Shown here piece after piece: positions 25,891 through 38,039 of a DNA stretch of 38,076 nt (the first letter of the stretch is position 1; each line of letters starts with the position of its first letter). The notes under the pieces were generated by a model that made no database searches, was not told the DNA's origin, and worked only from the letters and a program-made list of their open reading frames with translations. The stretch is from Thermoflexales bacterium (GTDB lineage: Bacteria; Chloroflexota; Anaerolineae; B4-G1; DUEL01). The position numbers and the translations under genes were made by a program. The stretch covers positions 1 through 38,076 of the forward strand of contig JBBIKR010000027.1 of NCBI GenBank assembly GCA_037445395.1, written 5' to 3'.

Positions 25891-26163
25891 ACCTTCTCTG
25901 TCATCCTGGCATCAGCAAAGGGGTGAGAAATGACCCTCTGGTATCACCGCCGCACCTGATGGGAAGGTCGGGGCGCCGGTTGGCGCCCGCAGACCGCTGG
26001 GCTCATGTCCGGGGGCGGCGGGGATGCCGCACCCTGAGACCTCTACGGGCGCGTGCCTCCCGAGCCGCCGCCGGCGTGGGCCGACGGCGGCTTTTCGTTG
26101 CCCACGCCGTGCCCGGGCCGCCGCCCGGTCGCGTGGAGATTCCATCTCAAGGAGGTACGCACC
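25891..26163 (+). promoter_or_regulatory. Long, GC-rich, highly structured 5' leader of the yedE operon (candidate riboswitch or attenuator)
   Basis: Hairpins: GGGUGA-GAAA-UGACCC (25921-25936) and gggcgcc-GGUU-ggcgccc (25971-25988). Long-range pair ccgccgc (25947-53)/gcggcgg (26015-21). A terminator-like stem competes with a 9-bp alternative helix (26073-81/26100-08). Confidence 0.45.
26064..26095 (+). terminator. Terminator-like stem-loop plus U-tract inside the yedE leader (putative attenuator)
   Basis: gccgccg (26064-70) pairs with cggcggc (26085-91) and is followed by TTTT (26092-95). It is mutually exclusive with the helix ggcgtgggc/gcccacgcc. Confidence 0.4.
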
Positions 26164-27276
26164 ATGTCCGAACGTCTCACCCGTTTCTTCGCCTCGCGCT
26201 GGGGCATCCTCCTGGCCGGGGCGGTCATCGGTCTCCTGGCCCCGCTCCTGCAGAAGGCCGGCAACCCCACCAACATGGGCATCTGCGTGGCCTGCTTTGA
26301 GCGGGACATCGCCGGAGCCCTGGGCCTCCATCGGGTCGCCACCGTCCAGTACATCCGGCCCGAGATCATCGCCTTCGTCCTGGGCTCCCTGATCGCCGCT
26401 CTCCTCTTCCGGGAGTTCAAGCCCCGCGCCGGTTCCGCCCCCATCGTCCGCTTCCTCCTGGGCATGTTCGCCATGATCGGCGCCCTGGTCTTCCTGGGGT
26501 GCCCCTGGCGGGCCCTCCTGCGGCTGGCGGGCGGAGACCTGAACGGCCTGGTGGGCACCGCCGGGCTGGTCGCCGGGATCGCCGTCGGCGTCTTCTTCCT
26601 GAAGCGGGGCTACTCCCTGGGCCGCAGCCGCCCGGCGCCGGCCGCCGTGGGCTGGATGATGCCCGCCATCATGCTGGGCCTCCTGCTCCTTCTCATCTTC
26701 CGCCCCCAGTTTACCAAAGACGGCCCCATCTTCTTCAGCGCCGAAGGGCCCGGCTCCAAACACGCCCCCATTCTCATCTCCCTGGCCGTGGGGCTGGTCA
26801 TCGGCTTCCTGGCCCAGCGCACCCGCTTCTGCACGATGGGCGCCTGGCGGGACGTCATCCTGATGGGGGATACCCACCTGATCACCGGGGTGGGCGCCCT
26901 CTTCGTGGTGGCGCTGATCACCAACCTGGCCCTGGGGCAGTTCAAACTGGGTTTCGCCGCCCAACCCGTGGCCCATTCCAGCCACCTCTGGAATTTCCTG
27001 GGGATGGCGCTGGCCGGGCTGGCCTTCCTCCTGGCTGGCGGCTGTCCGGGCCGTCAACTCTTCCTCTCCGGCGAGGGAGATGGCGATGCCGGTCTCTTCG
27101 TCCTGGGGATGATTTTCGGTGCGGGATTCGCCCACAACTGGGCCCTGGCCGGTGTCCCCGACAAACTGGCCGAGGGCGTGCTGACGGTGGGCGGGCCCGG
27201 CCCCTACGGACAGGCCGCCGTCATCATCGGGCTGGTCTTCTGCATCGTCCTGGGCTTCACGATGCGGGAAAAGTAA
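26164..27276 (+). CDS. yedE: YedE/FdhT-family putative selenium (sulfur) transporter
   Basis: ATG 26164 with GGAGG RBS. Polytopic protein with the family motif NMGICVACFERDIAG. Followed by a TusA-like gene and selD. Confidence 0.85.
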   Translation: MSERLTRFFASRWGILLAGAVIGLLAPLLQKAGNPTNMGICVACFERDIAGALGLHRVATVQYIRPEIIAFVLGSLIAALLFREFKPRAGSAPIVRFLLGMFAMIGALVFLGCPWRALLRLAGGDLNGLVGTAGLVAGIAVGVFFLKRGYSLGRSRPAPAAVGWMMPAIMLGLLLLLIFRPQFTKDGPIFFSAEGPGSKHAPILISLAVGLVIGFLAQRTRFCTMGAWRDVILMGDTHLITGVGALFVVALITNLALGQFKLGFAAQPVAHSSHLWNFLGMALAGLAFLLAGGCPGRQLFLSGEGDGDAGLFVLGMIFGAGFAHNWALAGVPDKLAEGVLTVGGPGPYGQAAVIIGLVFCIVLGFTMREK

Positions 27277-27311
27277 GACAACTGCTCGCAGTTGTCACAG
27301 GAGGTGGAATC

Positions 27312-27521
27312 ATGGCGAAGGTCGTAGACGCACGGGGCCTCTCCTGCCCCCAGCCGGTCATCCTGGCCCGGCAGGCCATAGAGGAGGGGGAGTTCCCCAT
27401 TGAAGTTTGGGTGGATACCGTCACCTCCCGCGAAAATGTGCGCCGGGCTGCCCAGCGGGCCGGCCTCCAGGTGCAGGTGGAAGCGGTGGGGGACGAGTTT
27501 AAACTGACGTTGACGCGGTAA
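27312..27521 (+). CDS. TusA-family sulfur/selenium carrier protein (69 aa)
   Basis: MAKVVDARGLSCPQPVILARQAI... contains the CPxP active-site motif. GGAGGTG RBS. It is hidden in the ORF track inside the out-of-context ORF 26499-27521. Confidence 0.85.
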   Translation: MAKVVDARGLSCPQPVILARQAIEEGEFPIEVWVDTVTSRENVRRAAQRAGLQVQVEAVGDEFKLTLTR

Positions 27522-27530
27522 ACAGCACAC

Positions 27531-27575
27531 ACGGAATACGCGATACGGGACACGTGTCCGTATTGCGTATTCCGT
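27531..27575 (+). terminator. ACGGAATACG-type palindrome 10 nt after the tusA-like stop
   Basis: acggaatacgcgatacgggacac/gtgtccgtattgcgtattccgt has arms of about 22 nt with one bulge and one mismatch. Same family as 22503-22562. Confidence 0.6.
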
Positions 27576-27617
27576 CTTCTGCATCGTGTCAGCAGTTACG
27601 CGGTTGCGCATCGGCGA

Positions 27618-27707
27618 GGAGATTGCTTCGCGGCTTCGCCGCTCGCAATGACCCTTCCGAGCCCAGTGAGATGTCATTGCGAGGCACGAAGTGCCGAAGC
27701 AATCTCC
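27618..27707. repeat. Inverted pair of GGAGATTGCTTCG...CTCGCAATGAC units (LLRFARND-type repeat)
   Basis: 27618-27652 and 27673-27707 are reverse complements at their flanks, and each carries its own small internal hairpin. The same units occur at 31232-31268 and 31281-31317. Confidence 0.8.
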
Positions 27708-27748
27708 AGGTGCGTAAGTCCTTTGTGTGTCTTGTTTCGGGAGGAAAG

Positions 27749-28801
27749 ATGACCCGGCGGGATTTCACCCGGCTGACCCAGATTGCCTCCTGCGCGGGTT
27801 GAGCGGGGAAACTGGCCCCCGGGGCCCTGGCGCAGGTCCTGCGCCCCCTGCTGGATTCGCTGGAGGAAAGCGAGCGCGTCATCGTGGGGCTCGGCTCGCC
27901 CGACGATGCCGTCGTCTACCGGATGGAGAACGGCACCCTGCTGGTCGCCACGGCGGACTTCTTTGCGCCGGTGGTGGATGACGCCTACACCTACGGCGCC
28001 ATCGCCGCCGCCAACTCCATCAGCGACGTCTACGCCATGGGCGGGACGCCCTTCTTGGCCCTCAACCTGGCCGCCATCCCGTCCGACATGCCGCCGGAGA
28101 TTGCGGCGGAGATTTTCCGGGGCGGGATGGAGAAGGCGCGGGAGGCGGGCGTGGTCGTCGCCGGCGGGCACACGATGGACGATAAGGAGCCCAAGTACGG
28201 CATGGCCGTCATCGGGACGGTGGCCCCGGATCGGTTGTTGCTCAAGGGCGGCGCGCGGCCTGGGGAGCGCCTGGTGCTGACCAAACCCCTGGGCTCCGGC
28301 GTCATCAGCACGGCCTATAAGTCCGGACAGGCATCGCCGGAGGCGCTGGCGGAGGCTGTCCCCTGGATGCTCCGGCTGAACCGGGACGCGGTCCGGGCCG
28401 TCCACGCCACCTCTGCCCGCGGTGCCACCGACATCACGGGCTTCGGCCTCCTGGGCCACGCCACCGAGATGGCCCTGGCCGCGGGAGTCCGCTTCCGCAT
28501 TCGGGCCGACCGGGTCCCCATCCTGGAGGCCGCCCGCCCTCTGGCCGACCTCTGGCTCTTCCCTGGCGGGACGGCGGCCAACGAGATGCACTTCGGCCAG
28601 TGGGTGACCTTTGACCCCTCCATCCCGGAGGAAATCCAGATGCTCCTCTACGACGCGCAGACCAACGGTGGCATTCTGGCGGCCATCCCCGCCGCAGAGA
28701 TGGCGCGCTTCACCGAAGCGTGCCGGGCGCTGGACCAGCCTTTCTGGGAGATCGGGGAAGTCCTGGAGGGAGAGCCGGGGATAGAGGTGGAATCCTCCTG
28801 A
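27749..28801 (+). CDS. selD: Selenide, water dikinase (selenophosphate synthetase) SelD, with selenocysteine read from in-frame TGA 27800-27802
   Basis: ATG 27749 with GGAGGAAAG RBS. MTRRDFTRLTQIASCAG-U-AGKLAPGAL aligns by eye with E. coli SelD ...RLTQYSHGAG-C17-GCK20ISPKVL. Downstream motifs are DDAVVY, TADFFAPVVDD and AGGHT. The ORF-track pieces 27554-27802 and 27884-28801 share one frame. Confidence 0.88.
27800..27802 (+). other. UGA selenocysteine codon in selD
   Basis: In frame with both flanking ORF pieces and positioned at the catalytic Cys/Sec residue of SelD. Confidence 0.85.
27821..27849 (+). promoter_or_regulatory. Candidate bacterial SECIS stem-loop
   Basis: Lower stem 27821-24/27846-49, internal loop CCCU, upper stem 27829-34/27840-45, apical loop GGUCC (27835-39). 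The core GCGCA-GGUCC-UGCGC resembles E. coli fdhF UGCA-GGUC-UGCA. Confidence 0.6.
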
Positions 28802-28849
28802 GGTGTCAGGCATTCCGGAGGGCCTGGCCCGTTCCCCATCGGAGGTGGG

Positions 28850-30001
28850 ATGATCTACCTGGACAACGCGGCCACGTCCTGGCCCAAGCCGCCGCAGGTC
28901 CTGGCGGCGATGGCCCGTTTTCTGACCGAAGTGGGCGCCAATCCGGGCCGCTCCGGGCACCGGCTTTCCGTGGAGGCCGGGCGCATCGTCTACGCGGCGC
29001 GGGAGGCGGTGGCCGAACTCTTCCACGCCCCTGACCCGCTGCGGGTGGTCTTCGGAATGAATGCCACGGAGGGGCTCAATCTGGCCCTGCGGGGCCTCCT
29101 GCGCCCCGGCGACCACGTGGTCACCTCCAGCATGGAGCACAACTCGGTGATGCGGCCGCTGCGGGCCCTGGAGCGGGAGGGGGTCTCGGTGACCGTCGTC
29201 CCCTGCTCCCCGGAGGGCTTTCTGGACCCGCGCGCAGTCCTGGAAGCCCTCCGGCCCGAAACCCGCCTGGTCGTCCTCAACCATGCCTCCAACGTGACCG
29301 GGACTCTGCTGCCGGTGGCGGAGGTGGGCCGGGCCTTGCAACGGATGGGCGGCCCGCTGTTGCTGGTGGACGCGGCGCAGAGCGGAGGCGCCGTCCCCAT
29401 AGACATGCAGGCCGACGGCATTGACCTGCTGGCCTTCACCGGGCATAAGTCCCTCTACGGCCCGATGGGCACTGGCGGCCTCATCATCGGCGAGCGGGTC
29501 CCGCTGGAGGAGTTCCGCCCCCTCCTCCGGGGCGGGACGGGGAGCCGGTCGGAGTGGGAGGAGCAACCGGACTTCCTGCCGGATATGTGCGAGAGCGGCA
29601 CCCCCAACGGGGTGGGGCTGGCGGGGCTGGAGGCCGGGGTCCGCTGGGTGCTGGAGCAGGGCGTGGAGGCCATCCGCGCCCACGAGGTGGAACTCTCTCA
29701 GCACCTCTCCGATGGCCTGCGGGAAATCCCCGGCGTGACCGTCTATGGGCCGGACGACGCGCATCTCCGGACGGCGGTGGTCTCCTTCAACATTGCCGGG
29801 ATGGAGCTGTCGGAGGTGGGGATGCGGCTGGACGAGGAGTTCGGCATTATGTGCCGGGTGGGACTGCACTGTGCGCCGGCGGCCCACCGCACCATCGGAA
29901 CCTTCCCCGTCGGGACGGTCCGCTTCGCTCTGGGGGCCTTCAACACCCGGGAGGAGGTGGACGCCGCGCTGCGGGCCGTGGCGCGGCTGGCCCGGGAGTG
30001 A
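28850..30001 (+). CDS. Class-V aminotransferase-fold cysteine desulfurase / selenocysteine lyase-like enzyme
   Basis: 383 aa with MIYLDNAATSWPKP, the PLP-lysine motif FTGHKSLYGPMG and the active-site region RVGLHCAPAAH. GGAGGTG RBS. Confidence 0.85.
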   Translation: MIYLDNAATSWPKPPQVLAAMARFLTEVGANPGRSGHRLSVEAGRIVYAAREAVAELFHAPDPLRVVFGMNATEGLNLALRGLLRPGDHVVTSSMEHNSVMRPLRALEREGVSVTVVPCSPEGFLDPRAVLEALRPETRLVVLNHASNVTGTLLPVAEVGRALQRMGGPLLLVDAAQSGGAVPIDMQADGIDLLAFTGHKSLYGPMGTGGLIIGERVPLEEFRPLLRGGTGSRSEWEEQPDFLPDMCESGTPNGVGLAGLEAGVRWVLEQGVEAIRAHEVELSQHLSDGLREIPGVTVYGPDDAHLRTAVVSFNIAGMELSEVGMRLDEEFGIMCRVGLHCAPAAHRTIGTFPVGTVRFALGAFNTREEVDAALRAVARLARE

Positions 30002-30121
30002 GAGCGTCTCTAAAAATTGCTCGTAGTGAACCACGAAGCGCAGCGGAGTGGCGTCTGGGACCGAAAACGGCACTCCGCTGCGCTCCGTGCCGGACTACGA
30101 ACGAATTTTCAGACACGCTCT
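30001..30121. repeat. 121-bp long imperfect palindrome (arms about 54 nt) directly after the desulfurase stop
   Basis: gagcgtctctaaaaattgctcgtagtgaaccacgaagcgcagcggagtggcgt pairs with acggcactccgctgcgctccgtgccggactacgaacgaattttcagacacgctc. Confidence 0.8.
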
Positions 30122-30156
30122 GAGGGGGCTTTGGCGGCGGCCACGGGCCAGCCACG

Positions 30157-30279
30157 GCGCCGATTGGAAATCGGCCTGGGTGGGTGCTTTCGCGCCGGGC
30201 GCCAACCTGCGTTGATGCTTCCGGTCAGCGCAGGCCGACCGGAGGCCGAAGGCCCAGGGAGGCGACTTCAGTCGCCGCC
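30157..30279 (+). repeat. GCGCCGATTGGAAATCGGCC-type multi-hairpin repeat, copy A (short form)
   Basis: Shares gcgccgattggaaatcggcct...caacctgcgttgatgcttccggtcagcgcaggccgaccgg...cttcagtcgccgc with copies B and C. Confidence 0.8.
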
Positions 30280-30284
30280 TTTTT

Positions 30285-30522
30285 GCGCCGATGGGAAATC
30301 GGCCTCAGGGGGCGCTTTTGCGCCAGACGTCAACCTGCGTTGATGCTTCCGGTCAGCGCAGGCCGACCGGGGGCTGGAAGCCCAGAGAGGACGACGCCTC
30401 GGGCGAAAGCCCCCTCGGGCCGAGAAGCCCCCTCGGCCTGAGGCCTCGGGGCCGAAGGATCGGGGCCGAGGGCTCGGCAGCCTGTCCCGAGCGAAGCGAG
30501 GGATGGCCCTTCAGTCGGCGCT
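30285..30522 (+). repeat. Same repeat family, copy B (long form with an internal CCTCGGGC-type low-complexity tract)
   Basis: Near-identical to A over about 90 nt. The 3' end ggcccttcagtcggcgct matches copy C. Confidence 0.8.
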
Positions 30523-30542
30523 ACGGTATACAGGAGGAGATT

Positions 30543-31136
30543 ATGAAGAAAATCGTGGATGCCCGGGGGCTACCCTGCCCCCAGCCGGTTCTGCTCACCC
30601 GCAATGCCCTGCAGGAAAGCGACACGGTGACCACCATCGTGGATAGCGATACTGCCCGCCACAACGTGGCCCGGATGGCCGAGAAGGCCGGGTGCACCGT
30701 GCAGGCCGAAGAGCGGGAAGACGGGGTGTACCTGCACATCCGCCGGGGCGAGGCGATGCCGGGGGCGGCTCCGGCCCCTCAGCCGCAACCGGCCGGCGGG
30801 CCGCTGGTCCTGGTCATCCCGTCGGAATTCATGGGCCGCGGCGAGCATGAAGAATTGGGGCAGATTCTGATGCGCGGTTTCCTGCACACCCTGAACGAGG
30901 TCAGCCCCCTGCCCGACGTCATCATCTTCTTCAACAGCGGGGTCAAACTGGTGGTGGAGGGGTCGCCCGTGCTGGAGGACCTGCGTACACTGGCGGATCA
31001 GGGGGTGCAGATTCTGGCCTGTGGCACCTGTCTGGGGTACTACGGCCTGAAGGAGAACGTCGCTATCGGCGAGGTGTCCAACATGTACACCATCGCCGAG
31101 ACGCTGTTGCAGGCGGGGAAAGTCGTTTCACTGTAG
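30543..31136 (+). CDS. yedF: YedF: selenium metabolism protein with an N-terminal TusA-like domain and a C-terminal DsrE-like domain
   Basis: MKKIVDARGLPCPQPVLL (CPxP) plus a C-terminal ...IIFFNSGVKL...ILACGTCLGYYGL... AGGAGGAG RBS. The ORF-track N-terminal extension from 30291 runs through repeats and I reject it. Confidence 0.85.
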   Translation: MKKIVDARGLPCPQPVLLTRNALQESDTVTTIVDSDTARHNVARMAEKAGCTVQAEEREDGVYLHIRRGEAMPGAAPAPQPQPAGGPLVLVIPSEFMGRGEHEELGQILMRGFLHTLNEVSPLPDVIIFFNSGVKLVVEGSPVLEDLRTLADQGVQILACGTCLGYYGLKENVAIGEVSNMYTIAETLLQAGKVVSL

Positions 31137-31400
31137 CACAGGATTTATCCCAATGCCACTAACATTTGGACGTGGGGCGGGCTTTTGAGCCTGCCGGCAG
31201 CCCGGAGAGGCGATCACGCAAAACTCACTCTGTCATTGCGAGCCGCCAAAGGCGGCGAAGCAATCTCCACAAGCCATTCAGGAGATTGCTTCGGGCGCTC
31301 TGCGCCCTCGCAATGACACGGAACAGGGCCATATCGCACTGCCCATAAAGTGAGTCTTGCGGAACCGCGAAAAGTTAGTGCCATTGGGATTTATCCTGTG
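31137..31400. repeat. 264-bp nested palindromic (MITE-like) element filling the convergent yedF/parB gap
   Basis: 27-bp terminal inverted repeats cacaggatttatcccaatgccactaac / gttagtgccattgggatttatcctgtg (3 mismatches). Inner inverted pairs are cgcaaaactcact/agtgagtcttgcg and the LLRFARND-type units 31232-31268/31281-31317. The right end overlaps the last 3 sense codons plus the stop codon of parB. Confidence 0.8.
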
Positions 31401-32239
31401 CGGTAATCCTGCACGAACCGCTGGTACAGTCCCTCCAGTTCCTCTTCTGAGTAGTAGTAGATGATAATCCGTCCCCCCTTCTTCCCCGGGCGGACCTGGA
31501 CGCGCGTCCCCAGCGCCTGCCGGAAACGGTCCTCCAGGGCCTGGATTTCGGGGGCGGCGGACCGGGCGGTCGGGCGCCGGGGCCGGGTCTGCAGAATCCG
31601 CCCCACCAGTTCCTCCGTCTGGCGGACGGTCAGGCCCTGGCGCAGCACCATGCGCAGCGCCGCGACCTGGGCCTCAGGGTCCTCCAGGGCCAGGAGCGCC
31701 CGGGCATGCCCCTCCCCGATGCGGCCGTTGAGGAGCGCTTCCTTGACCGCGTCGGTGGCTTTCAGCAGGCGCAGGGTGTTGGTGACGGCGACCCGGCTCT
31801 TGCCCACCCGCCGGGCCACCTCCTCGTGAGTCAGCCCGAATTCCTCAATCAGTTGCCGGTAGGCCCCCGCCTCCTCCAGCGGGTTCAGGTCCTTCCGCTG
31901 CAGGTTCTCTACCAGCGCCAGTTCCAGCGTCTGCTGGGGGGCCAGGTCCTTGACGATGACGGGCACCGTCGTCAGGCCGGCCAGTTTCGCCGCCCGCCAG
32001 CGCCGCTCCCCCGCCACCAACTGGTAACCGTCCCCATCCCGGACGACGATGAGCGGCTGGAGAACGCCGTGCGTCTGAATGGAAAGGGCCAGTTCCACCA
32101 GTTCGTCGTCCCGGATGAGCATACGGGGCTGATGGGGATTGGGGCGGATGTCCTCCACCGGCACCTCCAGGATGCCGGTCGCTTCCTCGCCGACGGGGAT
32201 CAGCGCTTCCAGCCCCTTGCCCAGGCCGAATTTACCCAT
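31391..32239 (-). CDS. parB: Chromosome partitioning protein ParB (Spo0J)
   Basis: MGKFGLGKGLEALIP N-terminus, ParB box ALVENLQRKDLNPLEEA, and an HTH. ATG 32239 with GGAGGTG RBS overlaps the parA stop by 8 nt. Confidence 0.93.
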   Translation of the reverse strand: MGKFGLGKGLEALIPVGEEATGILEVPVEDIRPNPHQPRMLIRDDELVELALSIQTHGVLQPLIVVRDGDGYQLVAGERRWRAAKLAGLTTVPVIVKDLAPQQTLELALVENLQRKDLNPLEEAGAYRQLIEEFGLTHEEVARRVGKSRVAVTNTLRLLKATDAVKEALLNGRIGEGHARALLALEDPEAQVAALRMVLRQGLTVRQTEELVGRILQTRPRRPTARSAAPEIQALEDRFRQALGTRVQVRPGKKGGRIIIYYYSEEELEGLYQRFVQDYRTG

Positions 32240-33026
32240 GTTCCACCTCCGCCGACGGCGCCCGTCCGTCACCGCTGAGCAGTTCCCAGGCCAGGGCCCG
32301 GTAGGCCAGGTCGCCTGGGGAACGGGGGGCGTAAGCCAGGATGGGGAGCCCGTGGCTGGGGGCCTCGCTCAGCCGGACGTTGCGCGGGATGACCGTCCGG
32401 AAGACCCGGTCTCCGAAATACCGCTGCACTTCCACCACCACCTGCTGGGAGAGATGGGTGCGGGAGTCAAACATCGTCATCACCAGGCCCCGCAGGCGCA
32501 GGTGAGGGTTCAGGGAACGGCGCACCAGGTCCAGCGTGCGCATCAGTTGAGTGAGTCCTTCCAGGGCCAGGTACTCGCACTGGATGGGGACGATGACGCC
32601 GCTTCTGGCGGCGACCAGCGCGTTGACGGTGAGGATGCCCAAACTGGGGGGGCAATCTATCAGGACGTAGTCGTAGCGGTCATCCAGGCCGGAGAGGGCC
32701 ATTTCCAGCCGCCGCTCCCGGGCCAGCATGGGGATCAGTTCCACCGTCGCGCCGGCCAGTTGGGCCGAACTGGGCACCAGGTCCAGCCGCACCCAGCGGG
32801 TCAGGGTGATGATCCCGTCCAGCGGCGCCTCGCGCACCAGGGCATCGTAGACCGTCGCCGGAAGCGCGGCGCGGTCCACCCCCAGGCTGACCGTCGCGTT
32901 GGCCTGGGGGTCCATATCCACCAGCAGGACCCGCTGGCCCCAGTGGGCCAGATAAGCCGCCAGATTGACGGCGGTCGTGGTCTTGCCCACGCCGCCCTTC
33001 TGGTTGGCGAAGGCGTAGATGATCAT
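32232..33026 (-). CDS. parA: ParA/Soj partition ATPase
   Basis: Deviant Walker A FANQKGGVGKTT and DCPPSLG. The ATG overlaps the PfkB stop (ATGA). Confidence 0.95.
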   Translation of the reverse strand: MIIYAFANQKGGVGKTTTAVNLAAYLAHWGQRVLLVDMDPQANATVSLGVDRAALPATVYDALVREAPLDGIITLTRWVRLDLVPSSAQLAGATVELIPMLARERRLEMALSGLDDRYDYVLIDCPPSLGILTVNALVAARSGVIVPIQCEYLALEGLTQLMRTLDLVRRSLNPHLRLRGLVMTMFDSRTHLSQQVVVEVQRYFGDRVFRTVIPRNVRLSEAPSHGLPILAYAPRSPGDLAYRALAWELLSGDGRAPSAEVEHG

Positions 33027-33880
33027 AAATCCTGGTGGTTCTCAATACACCGGACCACTTCCTCCGGGGTGGGGGTGCCGGAGAGGCCGGGCCGGGTGAC
33101 GGAGACGGCGGCGATACAGTTGGCCCGGCGCGCGGCCTGGGTGGGGTTGTCCCTCTGCCAGAGGCGGGCGAAGAAGACGGCCGCGAAGATGTCCCCCGCG
33201 CCGGTGGGGTCCACCTCCCGGGCCGGGAAGGCCGGCAAGTGCCAGACCCGCCCCTCAGCGTAGACGGAGCATCCGCGCGCGCCCCGGGTGACGGCCAGGA
33301 CACGGGTCCGGGCGGCCCAGCGGGCCGCCAGCGCCTCGTCGCCGCCGATGTCCTCCTCGCTCAGGACGACGGCGTCCGCCCGGGGAAGCCACTCCTCCGC
33401 CTCCTCCCACGGGCCGGGGGCGACCCGTCCGGCCCCGTCCCAGCGGCGCATCCAGCCCTGCGGGGTCAGGCCCAGAAAGTCGGCCCGGATGTGGTCGGCC
33501 AGGGCAGGGTCGCACTCCTGCGCCACCGGCCCCAGGTGGAGAATGCCGACGTGGCGCAGGATGAAACCTGCGCCACGGAGAGTATCGGGAGTCAGCGGAG
33601 CGGCGCGGGCGTGGAGAAACTGCATCCGCCCGTCCGAAGTGTACCGGTTTTCAAAGACCGTGTTCCTGGGGGCCGGAATGCGGTAAACGGTGACATCGGG
33701 AAGGACGGCGCTCAGGTCCAGGGAGTCGTCGGTGCTGGTGAGGACGGCGGTACGCAGGCCCAGCGCGCGGGCGGTGCGGGCGGCGTAGGCCGCCGTGCCG
33801 CCGGGGGTCAGCGACCCGTCCGGCAACCGGTCCTGGGTGACATGGCCGACGACGAGGTAGTCCCAGAGAAGCAAACTCAC
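33023..33880 (-). CDS. PfkB-family carbohydrate/nucleoside kinase
   Basis: 285 aa with N-terminal GG motif (TPGGTAAYAA) and C-terminal DPTGAGDIFAAVF anion-hole motif. GTG start overlaps the upstream stop (GTGA). Confidence 0.85.
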   Translation of the reverse strand: MSLLLWDYLVVGHVTQDRLPDGSLTPGGTAAYAARTARALGLRTAVLTSTDDSLDLSAVLPDVTVYRIPAPRNTVFENRYTSDGRMQFLHARAAPLTPDTLRGAGFILRHVGILHLGPVAQECDPALADHIRADFLGLTPQGWMRRWDGAGRVAPGPWEEAEEWLPRADAVVLSEEDIGGDEALAARWAARTRVLAVTRGARGCSVYAEGRVWHLPAFPAREVDPTGAGDIFAAVFFARLWQRDNPTQAARRANCIAAVSVTRPGLSGTPTPEEVVRCIENHQDL

Positions 33881-34308
33881 CGGGGTGCCGTCCTGGTACC
33901 CAACGCTTGCGAAAGCGCACGAAGTCGCGCGCCGATGGGGAGCCCCTGGAACGGAATTTCGTAGGAACTCAGGTGGCCGATCAGGGGCCGATAATATGCT
34001 TTCCCTGCCAGGATAATGAAGTGGTCGGTGCGCAGGTCAGCGTACCGGGCCAGTTGCTCCACCACGCGCTGTGCCCACTCCCGAATCTCACCTGCGGACA
34101 TCGTTTTCAGCGTCTGGTCGTAGGGCTCAACCTCGGCGTCCAGCGGCAACAGGCCGTATTTGGCGGAGAGGATGTAGATGGCATCCGGCGCCAGTTGCTC
34201 CGCGTAGGCCAGACTTTTCCGGAACAGAGCACTGGTATAGAGGTCTCTGGCGCGGGCTTTATGGGGCAACTTCCGCTTGACACAGGAAATCAGGACGATG
34301 CGCTTCAT
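33877..34308 (-). CDS. Small alpha/beta protein resembling the DUF6884 family (function unknown)
   Basis: 143 aa. The pattern MKRIVLISCVKRKL...ARDLYTSALFRKSLAYA...ILSAKYGLLPLD..VEPYDQTL matches what I recall for DUF6884. The family name is from memory. The ATG abuts the upstream TGA with no gap. Confidence 0.5.
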   Translation of the reverse strand: MKRIVLISCVKRKLPHKARARDLYTSALFRKSLAYAEQLAPDAIYILSAKYGLLPLDAEVEPYDQTLKTMSAGEIREWAQRVVEQLARYADLRTDHFIILAGKAYYRPLIGHLSSYEIPFQGLPIGARLRALSQALGTRTAPR

Positions 34309-35043
34309 TCACACCCCCTGTTTGGCACACCACGTTTCCATAGGGCATGCCCGGCACTGCGGGACAACGGCAAGACACCGGGTGCGCCCCAGATGCCACA
34401 GGGCCGCGTCCACAATCCCCGGCAAGTCCGGGTTCATTCTTCGCGCCGCCGCGACCGCCGCCCCATCTGTGGGAGCGTCGCTGACGCCCAGGCGGTATAA
34501 CACGCGCACGGTGTGGGTATTGGGCTTGATGTCTATGCTCCAGCGGTCGGGGAAGCGCACGCGAAAGACCCGTTCAATCAACAACACGGCCATATTCGCG
34601 ATGCCCGGCCCCACACCGTAGATGGAGAGAAAGGTACGGATCACCTCGGCCGCGCTTCGCCCCTCCCAGATTCGGGCCGCGTTCCCGCCGTACCTGTCCA
34701 CGACCAGATGGGTCAACTCATACAGCGTGCGCGGCGCGTCACTGATGTAGTGGGGACGGCGCGGCAGGCGCCGGATCAGAGAGGCCCAATTCTCCAGGGA
34801 GTACGCATACAGACGCCTGGGGTCCAGATGACCAACGACGGTGCGAACGTCGTAGGGGATGGTCCAGATGATTTCAGATTTGGTGCCGCGGTCCAGGCAG
34901 GCGGCCATGCAGAAGGCGTAGGGGTCTGAAGTGACCAGGTATGCGGCGTCGGGCACAACGGTTGGGCAGAGATCGGCCACGGGCACCTTTTCGCCGTAGG
35001 CCACCAGGGCCTGAGTGAGATCGGAAAGGGTTCCGGCCATCAT
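34309..35043 (-). CDS. HhH-GPD superfamily [4Fe-4S] DNA glycosylase-like protein (EndoIII/MutY-like, non-canonical catalytic residues)
   Basis: HhH hairpin IYGVGPGIANMAV, then THTVRVLYRLG (compare EndoIII DTHIFRVCNR). The C-terminal C-x6-C-x2-C-x5-C (CLAVVPQCRACPMETWC) has exactly the EndoIII FeS spacing. AGGAGG RBS. Confidence 0.8.
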   Translation of the reverse strand: MMAGTLSDLTQALVAYGEKVPVADLCPTVVPDAAYLVTSDPYAFCMAACLDRGTKSEIIWTIPYDVRTVVGHLDPRRLYAYSLENWASLIRRLPRRPHYISDAPRTLYELTHLVVDRYGGNAARIWEGRSAAEVIRTFLSIYGVGPGIANMAVLLIERVFRVRFPDRWSIDIKPNTHTVRVLYRLGVSDAPTDGAAVAAARRMNPDLPGIVDAALWHLGRTRCLAVVPQCRACPMETWCAKQGV

Positions 35044-35123
35044 CCCTCCTTTGCCGTAAATACCTCACCCTTCCCCCTCATAGGCGCTAACTCAATGGAG
35101 TGCCGGGCTGTCCACCGCCAGGA

Positions 35124-35278
35124 GCGCCGATTGGAAATCGGCCTCCCTGGTCGCTTTCGCGCCCGGCGTCGGCCTGCGCCGACGCATGCTCCCGGTCGGC
35201 GAAGGCCGACCGGAGGCTGGAAGCCCAAAGAGGACGACGCCTCGGGCGAGCCCTCGGCGTGGCCCTTCAGTCGGCGCT
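35124..35278 (+). repeat. GCGCCGATTGGAAATCGGCC-type repeat, copy C
   Basis: Shares its 5' end (gcgccgattggaaatcggcct), middle (ggccgaccggaggctggaagccca.agaggacgacgcctcgggcga) and 3' end (ggcccttcagtcggcgct) with copy B. Confidence 0.8.
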
Positions 35279-35325
35279 TCGTGCGACCCCGCCCGAAGGA
35301 GTACCCGGAATCCCCGGATGGCCTG

Positions 35326-36075
35326 CTACTCTTTCCCCACACGCGGAATAATCGTCACCCGGCGGCGGTTGCCCTCGCCGACGCTCTGGGTGGTGACGTC
35401 GGGGTGGTCCCGGAGCGCCAGGTGGATGATGCGGCGCTCGTAGGGGGGCATCGGCTCCAGATAGACGGTGCGCCCGCTCCGGACCGCCTGAGTGGCCATC
35501 CGCTCCGCCAGACGGCGGAGGTTCTGCTCCCGCCGTTGCTTGTAACCCTGGACGTCCACCACCAGATTGACCATCTGGCCCATCTTCCGATTGACCAGCA
35601 CGCGCAGGATGTGCTGAAGCGCAGCCAGGGTCTCCCCGCGCGGGCCGATCAGCGTGTCCGCCCCGGCGGTCTGGATATTCAGCACAAGGGCGGCCGTCTC
35701 CTCATCGGTTGCCGGCTCCGCCAAGCGGACCTGAATCTCGGCGGAGTATCCCAGGTGACGGAGGAGGTCCTCCAGTATGGAGCGGGCCACTTCAGCAGCC
35801 GGCGACTCCGGAGCGACCGGGGGAACCGGTGGGGCTGGGGCCGGGGTCGGGACCGGCGCAGGAATGGCCTCGGGGGCCACCAGCGGCGTGAGCCGGACCC
35901 GCGCCATCCGGGCGCCGATGCCCAGAATGCCCCGGCTCCCTTCGTCCAGAATCTCAATTTCCACCGCCTCGCGCGGGAGACGCAGCGCAGTCAGCCCCGC
36001 CGCGATGGCGGCCTCTACGGTCTCGCCGAAGAAAATCTTGCCTTCTGTGCTCACATTCGTACCCTCTTGGAGCAA
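35326..36075 (-). CDS. jag: Jag/KhpB RNA-binding protein (Jag_N, KH, R3H)
   Basis: N-terminal ...GETVEAAIAAGLTALRLPREAVEIEILDEGSRG, a Pro/Ala linker, and the C-terminal R3H region YERRIIHLALRDHPDVTTQSVGEGNRRRVTI. TTG 36075 has a GGAGG RBS, and GTG 36054 is an alternative start. Confidence 0.88.
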   Translation of the reverse strand: MLQEGTNVSTEGKIFFGETVEAAIAAGLTALRLPREAVEIEILDEGSRGILGIGARMARVRLTPLVAPEAIPAPVPTPAPAPPVPPVAPESPAAEVARSILEDLLRHLGYSAEIQVRLAEPATDEETAALVLNIQTAGADTLIGPRGETLAALQHILRVLVNRKMGQMVNLVVDVQGYKQRREQNLRRLAERMATQAVRSGRTVYLEPMPPYERRIIHLALRDHPDVTTQSVGEGNRRRVTIIPRVGKE

Positions 36076-36081
36076 GTTTCT

Positions 36082-36888
36082 TTACCTCCGCCTCTTCCGC
36101 CGGGCGGGCTGGGACGGCCGCTCTTTGGGGCGTTCTGCCTCTTTCGGCCGTTCCGATTCCTTCGGTGCCTCCGCCGCGCCCGCCGGGACCGGCTGCGGCC
36201 TGGGCGTCACAAAGTACTGGAGCAGGGTAACCAGATTGGAGATGATGAAGTAAATGGAAAGCCCTGAGGCATAGGAGATGGAGATGAAGCCGAACATTAA
36301 CGGCATCATGATCAACATCTGCTGGTTCATCGCCCTGGACTGGGGGTCCGTGGAGGGCGGGGTCAAGATTTTCTGCGAGAGCCATGAAGTGACCACCACC
36401 AGGATGGGAAGGACGTAATACGGGTCCGGTTGCCCCAGGTCCATCCACAGGAATCGGCTCTGCAGAGGGATGAGGGAGGCCAGGCCGGGGATGAAGGGAT
36501 AGACGTTCTGGGAAAGGCGGACCAGGTCCAGCGGACTGACCGCCAGGGTGCGCATGATGGCCTGCCAGAGGCCGTAGAGGAGAGGTAGTTGGATCAGGAG
36601 GGGCAGGCACCCTCCCAGGGGATTCATGCCGGCCTCCCGGTAGAGTTTCATCTGCTCCTGGGCCAGTTTTTCCCGGTCATTCGCATACAGTTTCTGGAGT
36701 TTCGCCAGTTCCGGCTGCAGTTCCTGCATCCGGCGGGCCGATTGCTGCTGCTTCAACGTCAACGGCAGGACGGCCAGCCGCACCACCAGCGTGAGCGCGG
36801 TAATCGCCAGCACCGTCTGGTGGCCCAGGAGGCGGTAAAACAGCAGCAACAGGTTCACCATCGGGTTCAAAATCAGAAAATCCCACAT
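36082..36888 (-). CDS. yidC: Membrane protein insertase YidC (short Oxa1-type)
   Basis: 268 aa with LPLTLKQQQSARRMQELQPELAKLQKLY..., NPLGGCLPLLIQLPLLYGLW and a basic C-terminal tail. Confidence 0.93.
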   Translation of the reverse strand: MWDFLILNPMVNLLLLFYRLLGHQTVLAITALTLVVRLAVLPLTLKQQQSARRMQELQPELAKLQKLYANDREKLAQEQMKLYREAGMNPLGGCLPLLIQLPLLYGLWQAIMRTLAVSPLDLVRLSQNVYPFIPGLASLIPLQSRFLWMDLGQPDPYYVLPILVVVTSWLSQKILTPPSTDPQSRAMNQQMLIMMPLMFGFISISYASGLSIYFIISNLVTLLQYFVTPRPQPVPAGAAEAPKESERPKEAERPKERPSQPARRKRRR

Positions 36889-36896
36889 TTCCTGCT

Positions 36897-36923
36897 CCGT
36901 ATTCCGTGGTCGGTGATTCCGTC
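36897..36923. repeat. ACGGAAT-type short repeats in the 35-nt gap between the bamB-like stop and the yidC start
   Basis: The minus strand reads gacggaatcaccgaccacggaatacgg. Same word family as 22503, 27531 and 8031. Confidence 0.5.
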
Positions 36924-38039
36924 TTACTGTTGCTGGGCCGGATATGACCAGACCGGGCGGCCGTTCTCCACGTAGAAGGCCTGCACGCGCTGGGGGGCGT
37001 TGATGCGGGTCACATAGACCCGCTCCCCGCCGATCGCCATAGAGCCCAACTGTCCCTGGCCGGCCTGCTGCCAGAGAACGAAGCCGTCGGCGGTATCCAG
37101 ACCGAAGAGGGTGCCGTTCTCGCTGGCGATCAGCAACCGCTTCCCGTCCGGGCTCAGTGCTGGGCCCAGCCGGACGGCCCCCTGCACCCGACTGCGCCAG
37201 ATTTCCTGCCCGGTCGCCGCATCCAGCGCGTAGACGTTGCCACCCACATCGGCCGCGTAGAGGCGGCTGCCGTCGCTCGCCGGAGTCCCCCAGAACCAGT
37301 TGGCGCCGGTAAAGCGCCAGATTTCGGTGCCATCGGCCAGCCGCAGAGCGTAGAGGTTGTGGTCAAATGAACCGATGTAGAGGGTATCGGTCAGGACGAG
37401 AGGGCGGTCGGCCATGGCGCTACCGGCCTGAAACTGCCAGCGCAGCACGCCGGTCTGCAGGTCCAGGGCATAGAGGTGGTGGTCCAGCGAAGCGATGTAG
37501 ACGGTATCGGATATGATCAGGGGCGTCGCCCAGACCCGGCCCCGGGTGGGATATTGCCAGGCGAGGGTGCCGTCGTCTATCCGCAGGCCGTAGACGTTGC
37601 CGTCGCTGTTGCCGATGACGAAGATACCGTCTCCGGCGGCGCCGGGAGCGATGAATTCCCCGCCCGCGGTGAAGGGTTGGGGCCATGCCATCCGACCGCC
37701 GTTGAGGGAAAGGGCGCGCAGGACACCCTGAGAATGGGCAAAGAAGCCGCCCCCGGTCCGTTCGTAGGACGTGACCAGGAGCAGTTCATCGTTCAGCAGG
37801 GTGACCGTGTAGAAGGGACCGTACTGACGGAGGTCCGGTGTGGCGGGGAACGCCCAGACTTCCTGACCGGTCTCCGCGTCCAGCGCCCGCACCTGTTCCA
37901 GGTCCGCCACGTAGAGGGTTCCGTCGTGGAGGAGCAGGGTGGTCCATGTGGTGGCGCGGATGCCGCCGGAACAACCGGCGAGGAGGAGGACGGCCAGCAG
38001 GGCCAGGGCGACCGGGTGGATATGCGATGGTCTATTCAC
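36924..38039 (-). CDS. PQQ-like beta-propeller repeat lipoprotein (BamB-like)
   Basis: Lipobox LLLAGCSG after an N-terminal signal peptide. Repeated ...LYALD..TG...W.. blades. GTG start with AGGAG RBS. Confidence 0.85.
   Translation of the reverse strand: MNRPSHIHPVALALLAVLLLAGCSGGIRATTWTTLLLHDGTLYVADLEQVRALDAETGQEVWAFPATPDLRQYGPFYTVTLLNDELLLVTSYERTGGGFFAHSQGVLRALSLNGGRMAWPQPFTAGGEFIAPGAAGDGIFVIGNSDGNVYGLRIDDGTLAWQYPTRGRVWATPLIISDTVYIASLDHHLYALDLQTGVLRWQFQAGSAMADRPLVLTDTLYIGSFDHNLYALRLADGTEIWRFTGANWFWGTPASDGSRLYAADVGGNVYALDAATGQEIWRSRVQGAVRLGPALSPDGKRLLIASENGTLFGLDTADGFVLWQQAGQGQLGSMAIGGERVYVTRINAPQRVQAFYVENGRPVWSYPAQQQ

Follow-up and report, generated by a model that had tools for sequence, protein, structure and literature searches.

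A predicted selenocysteine-containing SelD and the hairpins downstream of its in-frame UGA in a selenium gene cluster of a Thermoflexales bacterium

Selenide, water dikinase (selenophosphate synthetase, SelD) occurs with either cysteine (Cys) or selenocysteine (Sec) in its catalytic loop. The Sec-type form constitutes the second most widespread selenoprotein family of prokaryotes (PMC1794560), and both this form and its misannotation are already well known (PMC1794560, PMC13326102, PMC13188914); the database BSepDB likewise describes SelD as frequently misannotated. Here, we describe the selD gene of a Thermoflexales bacterium (phylum Chloroflexota), which is located on contig JBBIKR010000027.1 of assembly GCA_037445395.1. 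The whole contig stretch analysed, 38,076 nucleotides in length, is referred to as the window, and features lie on its + strand unless noted otherwise. With a probability of about 0.93, positions 27749-28801 represent one intact gene for a Sec-containing SelD, which is read by means of a selenocysteine insertion sequence (SECIS), the hairpin termed H2 below.

In SelD of Escherichia coli, Cys/Sec17 and Lys20 are the residues essential for the enzyme. This protein (PDB 3u0o) and the window protein are homologous across residues 6-319, with Cys17 opposite U18 and Lys20 opposite K21 of the latter. The E. coli enzyme differs in having Cys instead of Sec and no SECIS, and its gene is located outside any cluster of the type yedE-tusA-selD-csd-yedF. 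SelD of Aquifex aeolicus (PDB 2yye/2zod, 2zau), which we take to be natively a Sec enzyme, is more similar in type. Along with SelD of Acetomicrobium mobile (listed in BSepDB), it shares with the window gene the protein family, the position of Sec in the N-terminal loop (xxG-U-A-x-K), an intragenic SECIS hairpin shortly 3' of the UGA and the same misannotation problem.

The selD gene and its in-frame UGA

The selD coding sequence starts with ATG 27749-27751 and ends with the stop codon TGA 28799-28801. The Sec codon, TGA 27800-27802, is in the same frame as the terminal stop and as an internal GTG at 27884. When the Sec codon is read through, the product comprises 350 residues followed by the stop (MTRRDFTRLTQIASCAG-U-AGKLAPGALAQVL...), with the UGA at residue 18 and the AAA codon of Lys21 at 27809-27811. 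The start codon is directly preceded by GGAGGAAAG (27740-27748), which includes the Shine-Dalgarno motif GGAGG (27740-27744) at a distance of 4 nt; a GGAGG-like motif is also present in 22/22 close loci. In the list of open reading frames (ORFs), the gene is cut in two (27554-27802 and 27884-28801). An earlier sequence-only reading of this DNA had pointed out this split and given the start codon, the internal TGA, the GTG, the terminal stop and the length of the product, all of which turned out to be exact. It had also identified the gene as selD and had placed the TGA by eye on the catalytic Cys/Sec position, with a conserved Lys three residues on, and the profile and structure searches reproduced both the identity and the register.

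For the profile searches, Cys was put in place of the stop in the read-through protein. The NCBIfam equivalog model for SelD (TIGR00476) yielded 343.5 bits, which is above the cut-off of 125, with residues 8-315 on profile positions 1-308 of 311. A score of 306.8 bits was obtained for NF002098 (cut-off 299). Since the first position of TIGR00476 corresponds to residue 8, which is 5' of the TGA, the family model covers the portion of the protein that is removed by ORF calling. The curated model is matched over its full length, and the N-terminal glycine-rich loop contains the Cys/Sec position and the Lys. Close homologues of the window protein carry the domains PF00586 and PF02769 (AIRS and AIRS_C). 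The best structure matches are SelD of E. coli (3u0o, E=4.9e-67) and of Aquifex aeolicus (2yye/2zod, E=3.9e-63). In the phmmer alignment with 3u0o, U18 falls on Cys17 and K21 on Lys20 (...CAG-U18-AG-K21 and ...GAG-C17-GC-K20, respectively). As judged from its homology, the enzyme is predicted to perform ATP-dependent synthesis of selenophosphate from selenide.

The G + C content at third codon positions rises from 0.58 in the region 5' of the ATG to 0.82 over the first 17 codons of selD, and amounts to 0.89 from the TGA to GTG 27884 and to 0.90 across the remainder of the gene. The coding signal therefore begins at 27749 and continues uninterrupted across the TGA. Together with the TGA shared by the relatives (see below), this goes well beyond chance.

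Relatives of the gene were collected in two sets. A DNA scan with one genome per species yielded 80 loci, 79 of which have an intact 5' end. They originate mostly from metagenome-assembled genomes (MAGs) of Thermoflexales, Anaerolineae and Dehalococcoidia, together with a few Alphaproteobacteria, and their protein identities to the window SelD range from 47 to 94%. The second set (loci L089-L168) was obtained from an independent scan of metagenome contigs, for which a Cys-type SelD (P0071) served as query. The tblastn alignments to relatives cover residues 1-347 and pass over the TGA. In the genome set, the codon in the Sec column is TGA in 79/79 loci with intact 5' end, set within a conserved (C/S)(A/G)G-U-A(G/S)K motif. 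The metagenome loci have TGA in 70/75 and TGC (Cys) in 5/75 cases. Neither TAA or TAG nor any other sense codon was found in this column in the two sets, and the Lys at position +3 from it is invariant in both. Given that TGA was found in 70/75 loci even with a Cys-type query, the Sec form predominates in this SelD clade and Cys is rare. According to the published view, conversions from Sec to Cys occur in SelD and the reverse does not; the rarity of the Cys form observed here is consistent with it.

The in-frame UGA is located where homologues have Cys, as seen in 12 Cys-type proteins and the 5 TGC loci, and it is conserved along with the coding sequence on both of its sides. The 22 closest loci have their start codon at the identical position with a GGAGG-like motif just 5' of it, and the DNA further 5' is unconserved. 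Variable sites in codons 2-17 of these loci number 6, 3 and 16 (of 16 each) at the first, second and third codon position, respectively, which is the signature of purifying selection on the translated peptide. The identity of the gene, the position and conservation of the UGA and the coding selection on both sides of it are established by these results.

An alternative is that the gene is truncated or a pseudogene, in which translation ends at 27802 and GTG 27884, or another start past the TGA, gives rise to a shorter SelD devoid of the catalytic loop. Such a product would lack the equivalents of Cys/Sec17 and Lys20, which general knowledge on E. coli SelD holds to be essential. The GTG in question (27884-27886, Val46) is in frame and is the start taken by ORF callers, and 108 of the best 120 database homologues are annotated in this truncated way. 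Still, protein-level conservation of the 45 codons from ATG 27749 up to 27884 extends over 79 species, with variation biased to third positions. This segment matches the SelD profile from its position 1 and includes the essential Lys, and its part past the TGA (27803-27883) is likewise conserved as coding sequence and covered by that profile. Both the ATG and its Shine-Dalgarno motif are conserved, and no relative starts after 27884. We thus regard a truncated gene as extremely improbable and GTG 27884 as not the genuine start. The sequence-only reading had named an outcome that would speak against its own proposal, namely orthologues starting past 27884 without conservation of 27749-27883. 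The relatives were examined for it, and all of them retain the region as coding sequence, with ATG and TGA as in the window.

The truncated annotations were characterised among the best 120 of the thousands of SelD homologues found by protein search. The 108 headless entries, which are those without the catalytic motif, begin with e.g. MAPGALAQVL or VGLGSPDDA, i.e. just 3' of the TGA or at the internal GTG. All of the remaining 12 are of the Cys type (CAGCA[S/A]KL, 52-57% identity), and U is annotated in none of them. Among the closest homologues, a single NCBI entry bears a name (P0001, locus L087, 6664-7695; 'selenide, water dikinase SelD'). It is 343 aa in length and begins with MAPGALAQ, five codons past the TGA; in the NCBI annotation of that MAG, selD has been truncated. 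The truncation of SelD by standard annotation, as predicted from the window sequence, is hence genuine and pervasive.

The correct SelD in this case comprises 350 residues with Sec18. An annotation that starts past the TGA deletes the catalytic loop, and the host organism should be scored as Sec-decoding. Because 108 of the 120 homologues are truncated and U is missing from all of the annotations, Sec-type SelD is under-counted when selenium use in Chloroflexota is surveyed at the protein level. This problem has already been raised (BSepDB 2026, deep-Sep 2025) and the present case confirms it. What is reported here is the correct identification of one more Sec-type SelD with a known annotation failure, which is of low novelty; only the occurrence, across the clade, of two alternative positions for the hairpin 3' of the selD UGA is mildly new.

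Hairpins 3' of the UGA

Two hairpins are located in the coding sequence shortly after the UGA. The proposed SECIS core, H2 (27829-27845, GGCGCAG-GUC-CUGCGCC), has a 7-bp stem and an apical loop GUC (27836-27838), which is 33 nt after the UGA, and its folding energy is -12.1 kcal/mol. H1 (27814-27826, GGCCC-CCG-GGGCC, -8.7 kcal/mol), a candidate accessory or spacer hairpin, starts at a distance of 11 nt from the UGA. The model for bacterial SECIS elements (bSECIS; PMC13188914) comprises an apical loop of 3-9 nt, an upper stem of 4-16 bp, a spacing of 16-37 nt between UGA and loop and a minimum free energy (MFE) of -7.5 kcal/mol or lower; a G is expected among the first two loop nucleotides, with G or U as the usual next base. 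All four constraints are satisfied by H2 (3-nt loop GUC with GU first, 7 bp, 33 nt, -12.1 kcal/mol), and H1 with its loop CCG fails the rule on the loop G.

H2 was found in 75/80 genome loci and 69/69 Sec-type genes of the metagenome set, and H1 in 71/80 and 15/69, respectively. At least one of the two hairpins is present in all 149 Sec-type genes. Both are missing from 4/5 Cys-type genes, compared to 0/149 Sec-type genes.

Constraint on synonymous sites was determined as normalised codon entropy in a codon alignment of 77 genes, with the 141 other conserved degenerate columns of the gene as comparison. This test was used since folding-energy tests discriminate poorly in a gene with a G + C content of 67%. 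The codons A+8, L+9, A+10, Q+11 and L+13, whose synonymous sites belong to the stem of H2 or to the 3' arm of H1, have entropies of 0.12-0.38. These values are all below the minimum of the 141 comparison columns (0.44). Codons whose third base is not part of a stem are unconstrained: V+12, with its third base in the apical loop, has an entropy of 0.89 and P+15, with its third base outside the stem, one of 0.90. The result was replicated in the 69 independent metagenome genes (stem 0.00-0.30 compared to a median of 0.88; loop codon 0.89, P+15 0.97). In the 3' arm of H1, the codons E+7 (GAG in 97%) and A+8 (GCC in 97%) are constrained.

Pairing is also maintained across the alignment of 80 sequences, in which 80.8% of the cells pair, compared to 38-62% with slid partners, and 7 pairs show double changes. 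Compensatory changes in H2 are CAA...TTG in the alphaproteobacterial loci (L035/L063/L066/L073) and GCCCAG...TTGGGC in L075, and comprise the types G-C to A-U and G-C to C-G. The gene contains a conserved hairpin in agreement with the SECIS model, on which selection acts at the RNA level beyond the need of the protein.

These data also bear on a possible sequencing or assembly error, by which an ordinary Cys-type selD with a real codon TGC or TGT would appear as a gene with TGA. Only one base separates TGA from either codon and Cys-type relatives do exist, but the TGA is found in the same column in 149 independently assembled relatives. It is accompanied by the SECIS hairpin and the synonymous constraint, whereas 4/5 Cys-type genes are without the hairpins. 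The probability of such an error is negligible.

H1 as the primary SECIS was rejected: its loop has no conserved G in the clade of the window, and it is missing from 54/69 Sec-type genes of the metagenome set. It may nevertheless serve as SECIS in lineages without H2. The H2-less Sec-type genes are L034, L064 (2979-3041), L072, L077 (1531-1593) and L080, and a hairpin with a G-containing loop was observed at the H1 position in these five genes (loops GUU, GGC, CGGGU and CGGGC). H2 only is present in the alphaproteobacterial loci and most metagenome genes, and both hairpins are present in the clade of the window. Two alternative SECIS positions within one protein family thus appear to be used across bacteria.

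In the SECIS of E. coli fdhF, which has been defined by experiment, the stem contains a bulged U. Its apex heptamer GCAGGUC, read from the genome sequence of E. coli, is shared without a difference by H2, and in both cases GU is placed on top of a GC-rich stem in an intragenic hairpin 3' of the UGA. In the window, the stem is fully paired without a bulged U, and the greater distance of the heptamer from the UGA is occupied by an additional, separate 13-nt hairpin, H1. The SelD gene of Acetomicrobium differs in another way. Its listed canonical SECIS (GGGUCC-GGC-GGACCU, BSepDB paper) is at the H1 position with the loop about 17 nt after the UGA, while in the clade of the window, H2 (loop at 33 nt) is universally conserved and conforms to the model, and H1 has the non-canonical loop CCG. 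It is conceivable, though doubtful, that this Chloroflexota SelD clade uses a bipartite SECIS with an fdhF-like apex (H2) and the intervening H1. If so, folding of H1 may shorten the effective distance or pause the ribosome, a spacing solution that is absent from the bSECIS model; such a spacing function of H1 is speculative.

A search of the whole window against Rfam at gathering thresholds and a permissive pass over 27250-30600 revealed no relevant family. The only matches were meaningless ones of microRNA precursors to a long palindrome.

Proposed decoding of the UGA as selenocysteine

Under the proposed mechanism, translation would initiate at ATG 27749 and the UGA at codon 18 would be decoded as Sec instead of stop, with the mRNA 33 nt 3' of the UGA folded into H2 (27829-27845). 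The product would carry Sec18 and Lys21 within a flexible N-terminal glycine-rich loop, which would bind selenium and produce selenophosphate from selenide and ATP. The gene selD is the centre of a selenium-handling cluster consisting of yedE, tusA, selD, a desulfurase or Sec-lyase-like gene and yedF. As SelD makes the selenium donor for its own Sec, its synthesis should depend on the selenium supply, so that selenium-dependent feedback may be expected. The mechanism also implies that SelA, SelB and tRNA-Sec are encoded in the genome, that SelB would bind H2 and not H1, and that selenium would be incorporated into the protein.

A strong case can be made that selA, selB and tRNA-Sec are present elsewhere in this genome, because a conserved in-frame UGA together with a constrained SECIS could not persist without this machinery. 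SelB was reported in Anaerolinea thermophila (PMC4959059), and the Sec-decoding trait is recorded in Chloroflexi (PMC5322559). Among the loci collected here, selA was found in L033, L035, L063, L066 and L073 and selB in L035, L063 and L073. The last three, more distant relatives that share both the UGA and H2, have tRNA-Sec directly 5' of selD. In L033, which belongs to the Chloroflexota, selA is 8 kb from selD. With the SelA of this locus as query, many Anaerolineae SelA proteins were obtained, showing that SelA is common in Anaerolineae MAGs. Three GC-rich NCBI contigs with SelA (JAJRVX01, JBPMHD01, DAOUAJ01) are part of assemblies other than those with the closest SelD genes.

Several results weigh against Sec decoding via H2. 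Neither selA, selB and tRNA-Sec nor any other tRNA is encoded within the 38-kb window, none of the three Sec genes was found up to a distance of 10 kb from selD in any of the closest relatives (73% identity or more), and no SelA gene could be linked to the genome of the window or to the assemblies of these relatives. A scan for in-frame TGA codons with coding signal on both sides, performed on the window and the flanks in close relatives, revealed selD only and no other selenoprotein gene. The bulk MFE tests are weak: the folding energy of the region after the TGA is unexceptional in comparison to dinucleotide shuffles (z -0.3 to -0.7), and against synonymous re-encodings the mean z is about -1.1, with similar values in other windows of selD. 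RNAalifold kept only 4 pairs of H2 in the alignment of 80 sequences, since the lower stem shifts its register between clades. The distance of 33 nt to the H2 loop is close to the top of the range of 16-37 nt, and the heptamer shared with fdhF is at +33 in the window instead of +19, which is 14 nt further from the UGA. H2 is the probable SECIS core and H1 probably accessory or lineage-specific, but with this spacing SelB may bind either hairpin.

Some of these points would also fit a read-through of the UGA without Sec, in which near-cognate or suppressor decoding inserts Cys, Trp or Arg at residue 18 and the hairpin promotes read-through instead of recruiting SelB. The genes of the Sec machinery are missing from the window and the spacing of the H2 loop is close to the canonical maximum, as would suit this explanation. 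The UGA, however, coincides exactly with the catalytic Cys/Sec column, where Cys is the only other residue encoded; Sec forms of this family are widespread (PMC1794560), and the apex of H2 matches the SelB-binding apex of E. coli fdhF. Moreover, distant relatives with the same UGA and H2 have tRNA-Sec, selA and selB beside selD. Read-through without Sec is therefore considered very unlikely, and Sec decoding remains the preferred interpretation.

Reassignment of TGA throughout the genome was examined and rejected, as 11/25 genes in the window, including selD, are closed by TGA.

The alphaproteobacterial MAGs have a compact arrangement in the order tRNA-Sec - selD(Sec) - selA - selB (L035 9786-14382, L063 9824-14456, L073 9692-14462; also L066). 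Their SelD proteins are 47-51% identical to those of Chloroflexota, and H2 is kept by the compensatory change CAA..TTG, without H1. A mobile cassette for the Sec trait or lateral transfer between the phyla is possible.

Selenium gene cluster and its surroundings

The association of YedE, a SirA-like protein, Sec-lyase and YedF with selD has been described in many phyla (Lin et al. 2015, PMC5322559). The neighbourhood in the window is similar, since yedE, a SirA/TusA-like gene, selD, a desulfurase of the Sec-lyase family and yedF are adjacent in this order (yedE-tusA-selD-cysteine desulfurase-yedF), which is the same in close relatives. It differs in that the desulfurase is below the cut-off of the SclA model (NF040779). 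Equivalog models for YedE (TIGR04112) and YedF (TIGR03527) were both matched near selD with scores above their cut-offs.

The gene yedE (26053-27276) codes for a putative selenium transporter (TIGR04112, 490.8 bits, cut-off 200; Pfam Sulf_transp). Its genuine start is probably 3' of GTG 26053, given that the profile match begins at residue 52 and the proteins of relatives are 370-372 aa in length. The tusA/sirA-like gene (27312-27521) encodes 69 aa (MAKVVDARGLSCPQPV...) with a CPQP (CPxP) motif and is preceded by the ribosome-binding site AGGAGG. In the ORF list, it is concealed by a long out-of-frame ORF (26499-27521). Orthologues of 69 aa (PF01206) are located between yedE and selD in L087 and L088, and the same position is occupied in L003-L010.

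The gene 3' of selD (csd, 28850-30001) belongs to a cysteine desulfurase family (TIGR01977, 453.7 bits, cut-off 377). With 389.8 bits, it does not reach the cut-off of 525 for the selenocysteine lyase SclA; it is best classified as a member of TIGR01977 and not as SclA, and may have a Sec-lyase-like function. The last gene of the cluster, yedF (30544-31136), encodes a protein of 197 aa with TusA and DsrE-like domains (TIGR03527, 204.6 bits, cut-off 110). It starts at ATG 30544 after an AGGAGG motif (MKKIVDARGLPCPQP), and the proteins of relatives are 196-197 aa in length. A longer yedF ORF of 281 aa (30291-31136) is an over-extension, in which the TIGR03527 match begins at residue 89.

Compared to the clusters of its relatives, that of the window is the only one with repeat-laden spacers (227 nt and 542 nt). 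The spacer between tusA and selD (27522-27748) is 227 nt in length, compared to 7-104 nt in relatives, and features two long palindromes with the arms 27531-27548/27558-27575 and 27618-27652/27673-27707. Its folding energy is -111.8 kcal/mol (z=-6.2). Copies of the 35-nt palindrome arm with 88-94% identity were found in intergenic DNA of L033 and L005. Judging from these copies, the palindrome looks like a dispersed Chloroflexota repeat, similar to repetitive extragenic palindromes (REP) or miniature inverted-repeat transposable elements (MITE), that was inserted just 5' of selD.

The spacer between csd and yedF (30002-30543) measures 542 nt, compared to 10 nt in L087 and 214 nt in L088. A palindrome with 43-nt arms (30012-30054/30067-30109) is located directly after the csd stop codon, followed by a direct repeat of 2 x 106 nt with 87% identity (30157-30262 and 30285-30390). 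Except for chance hairpin matches, no Rfam family was matched in this spacer.

On the - strand, parB, parA, a pfkB-family kinase gene and jag (31391-38039) adjoin the cluster, and the syntenic locus L088 continues with yidC and yidD. The cluster is probably located close to the region of the chromosomal replication origin.

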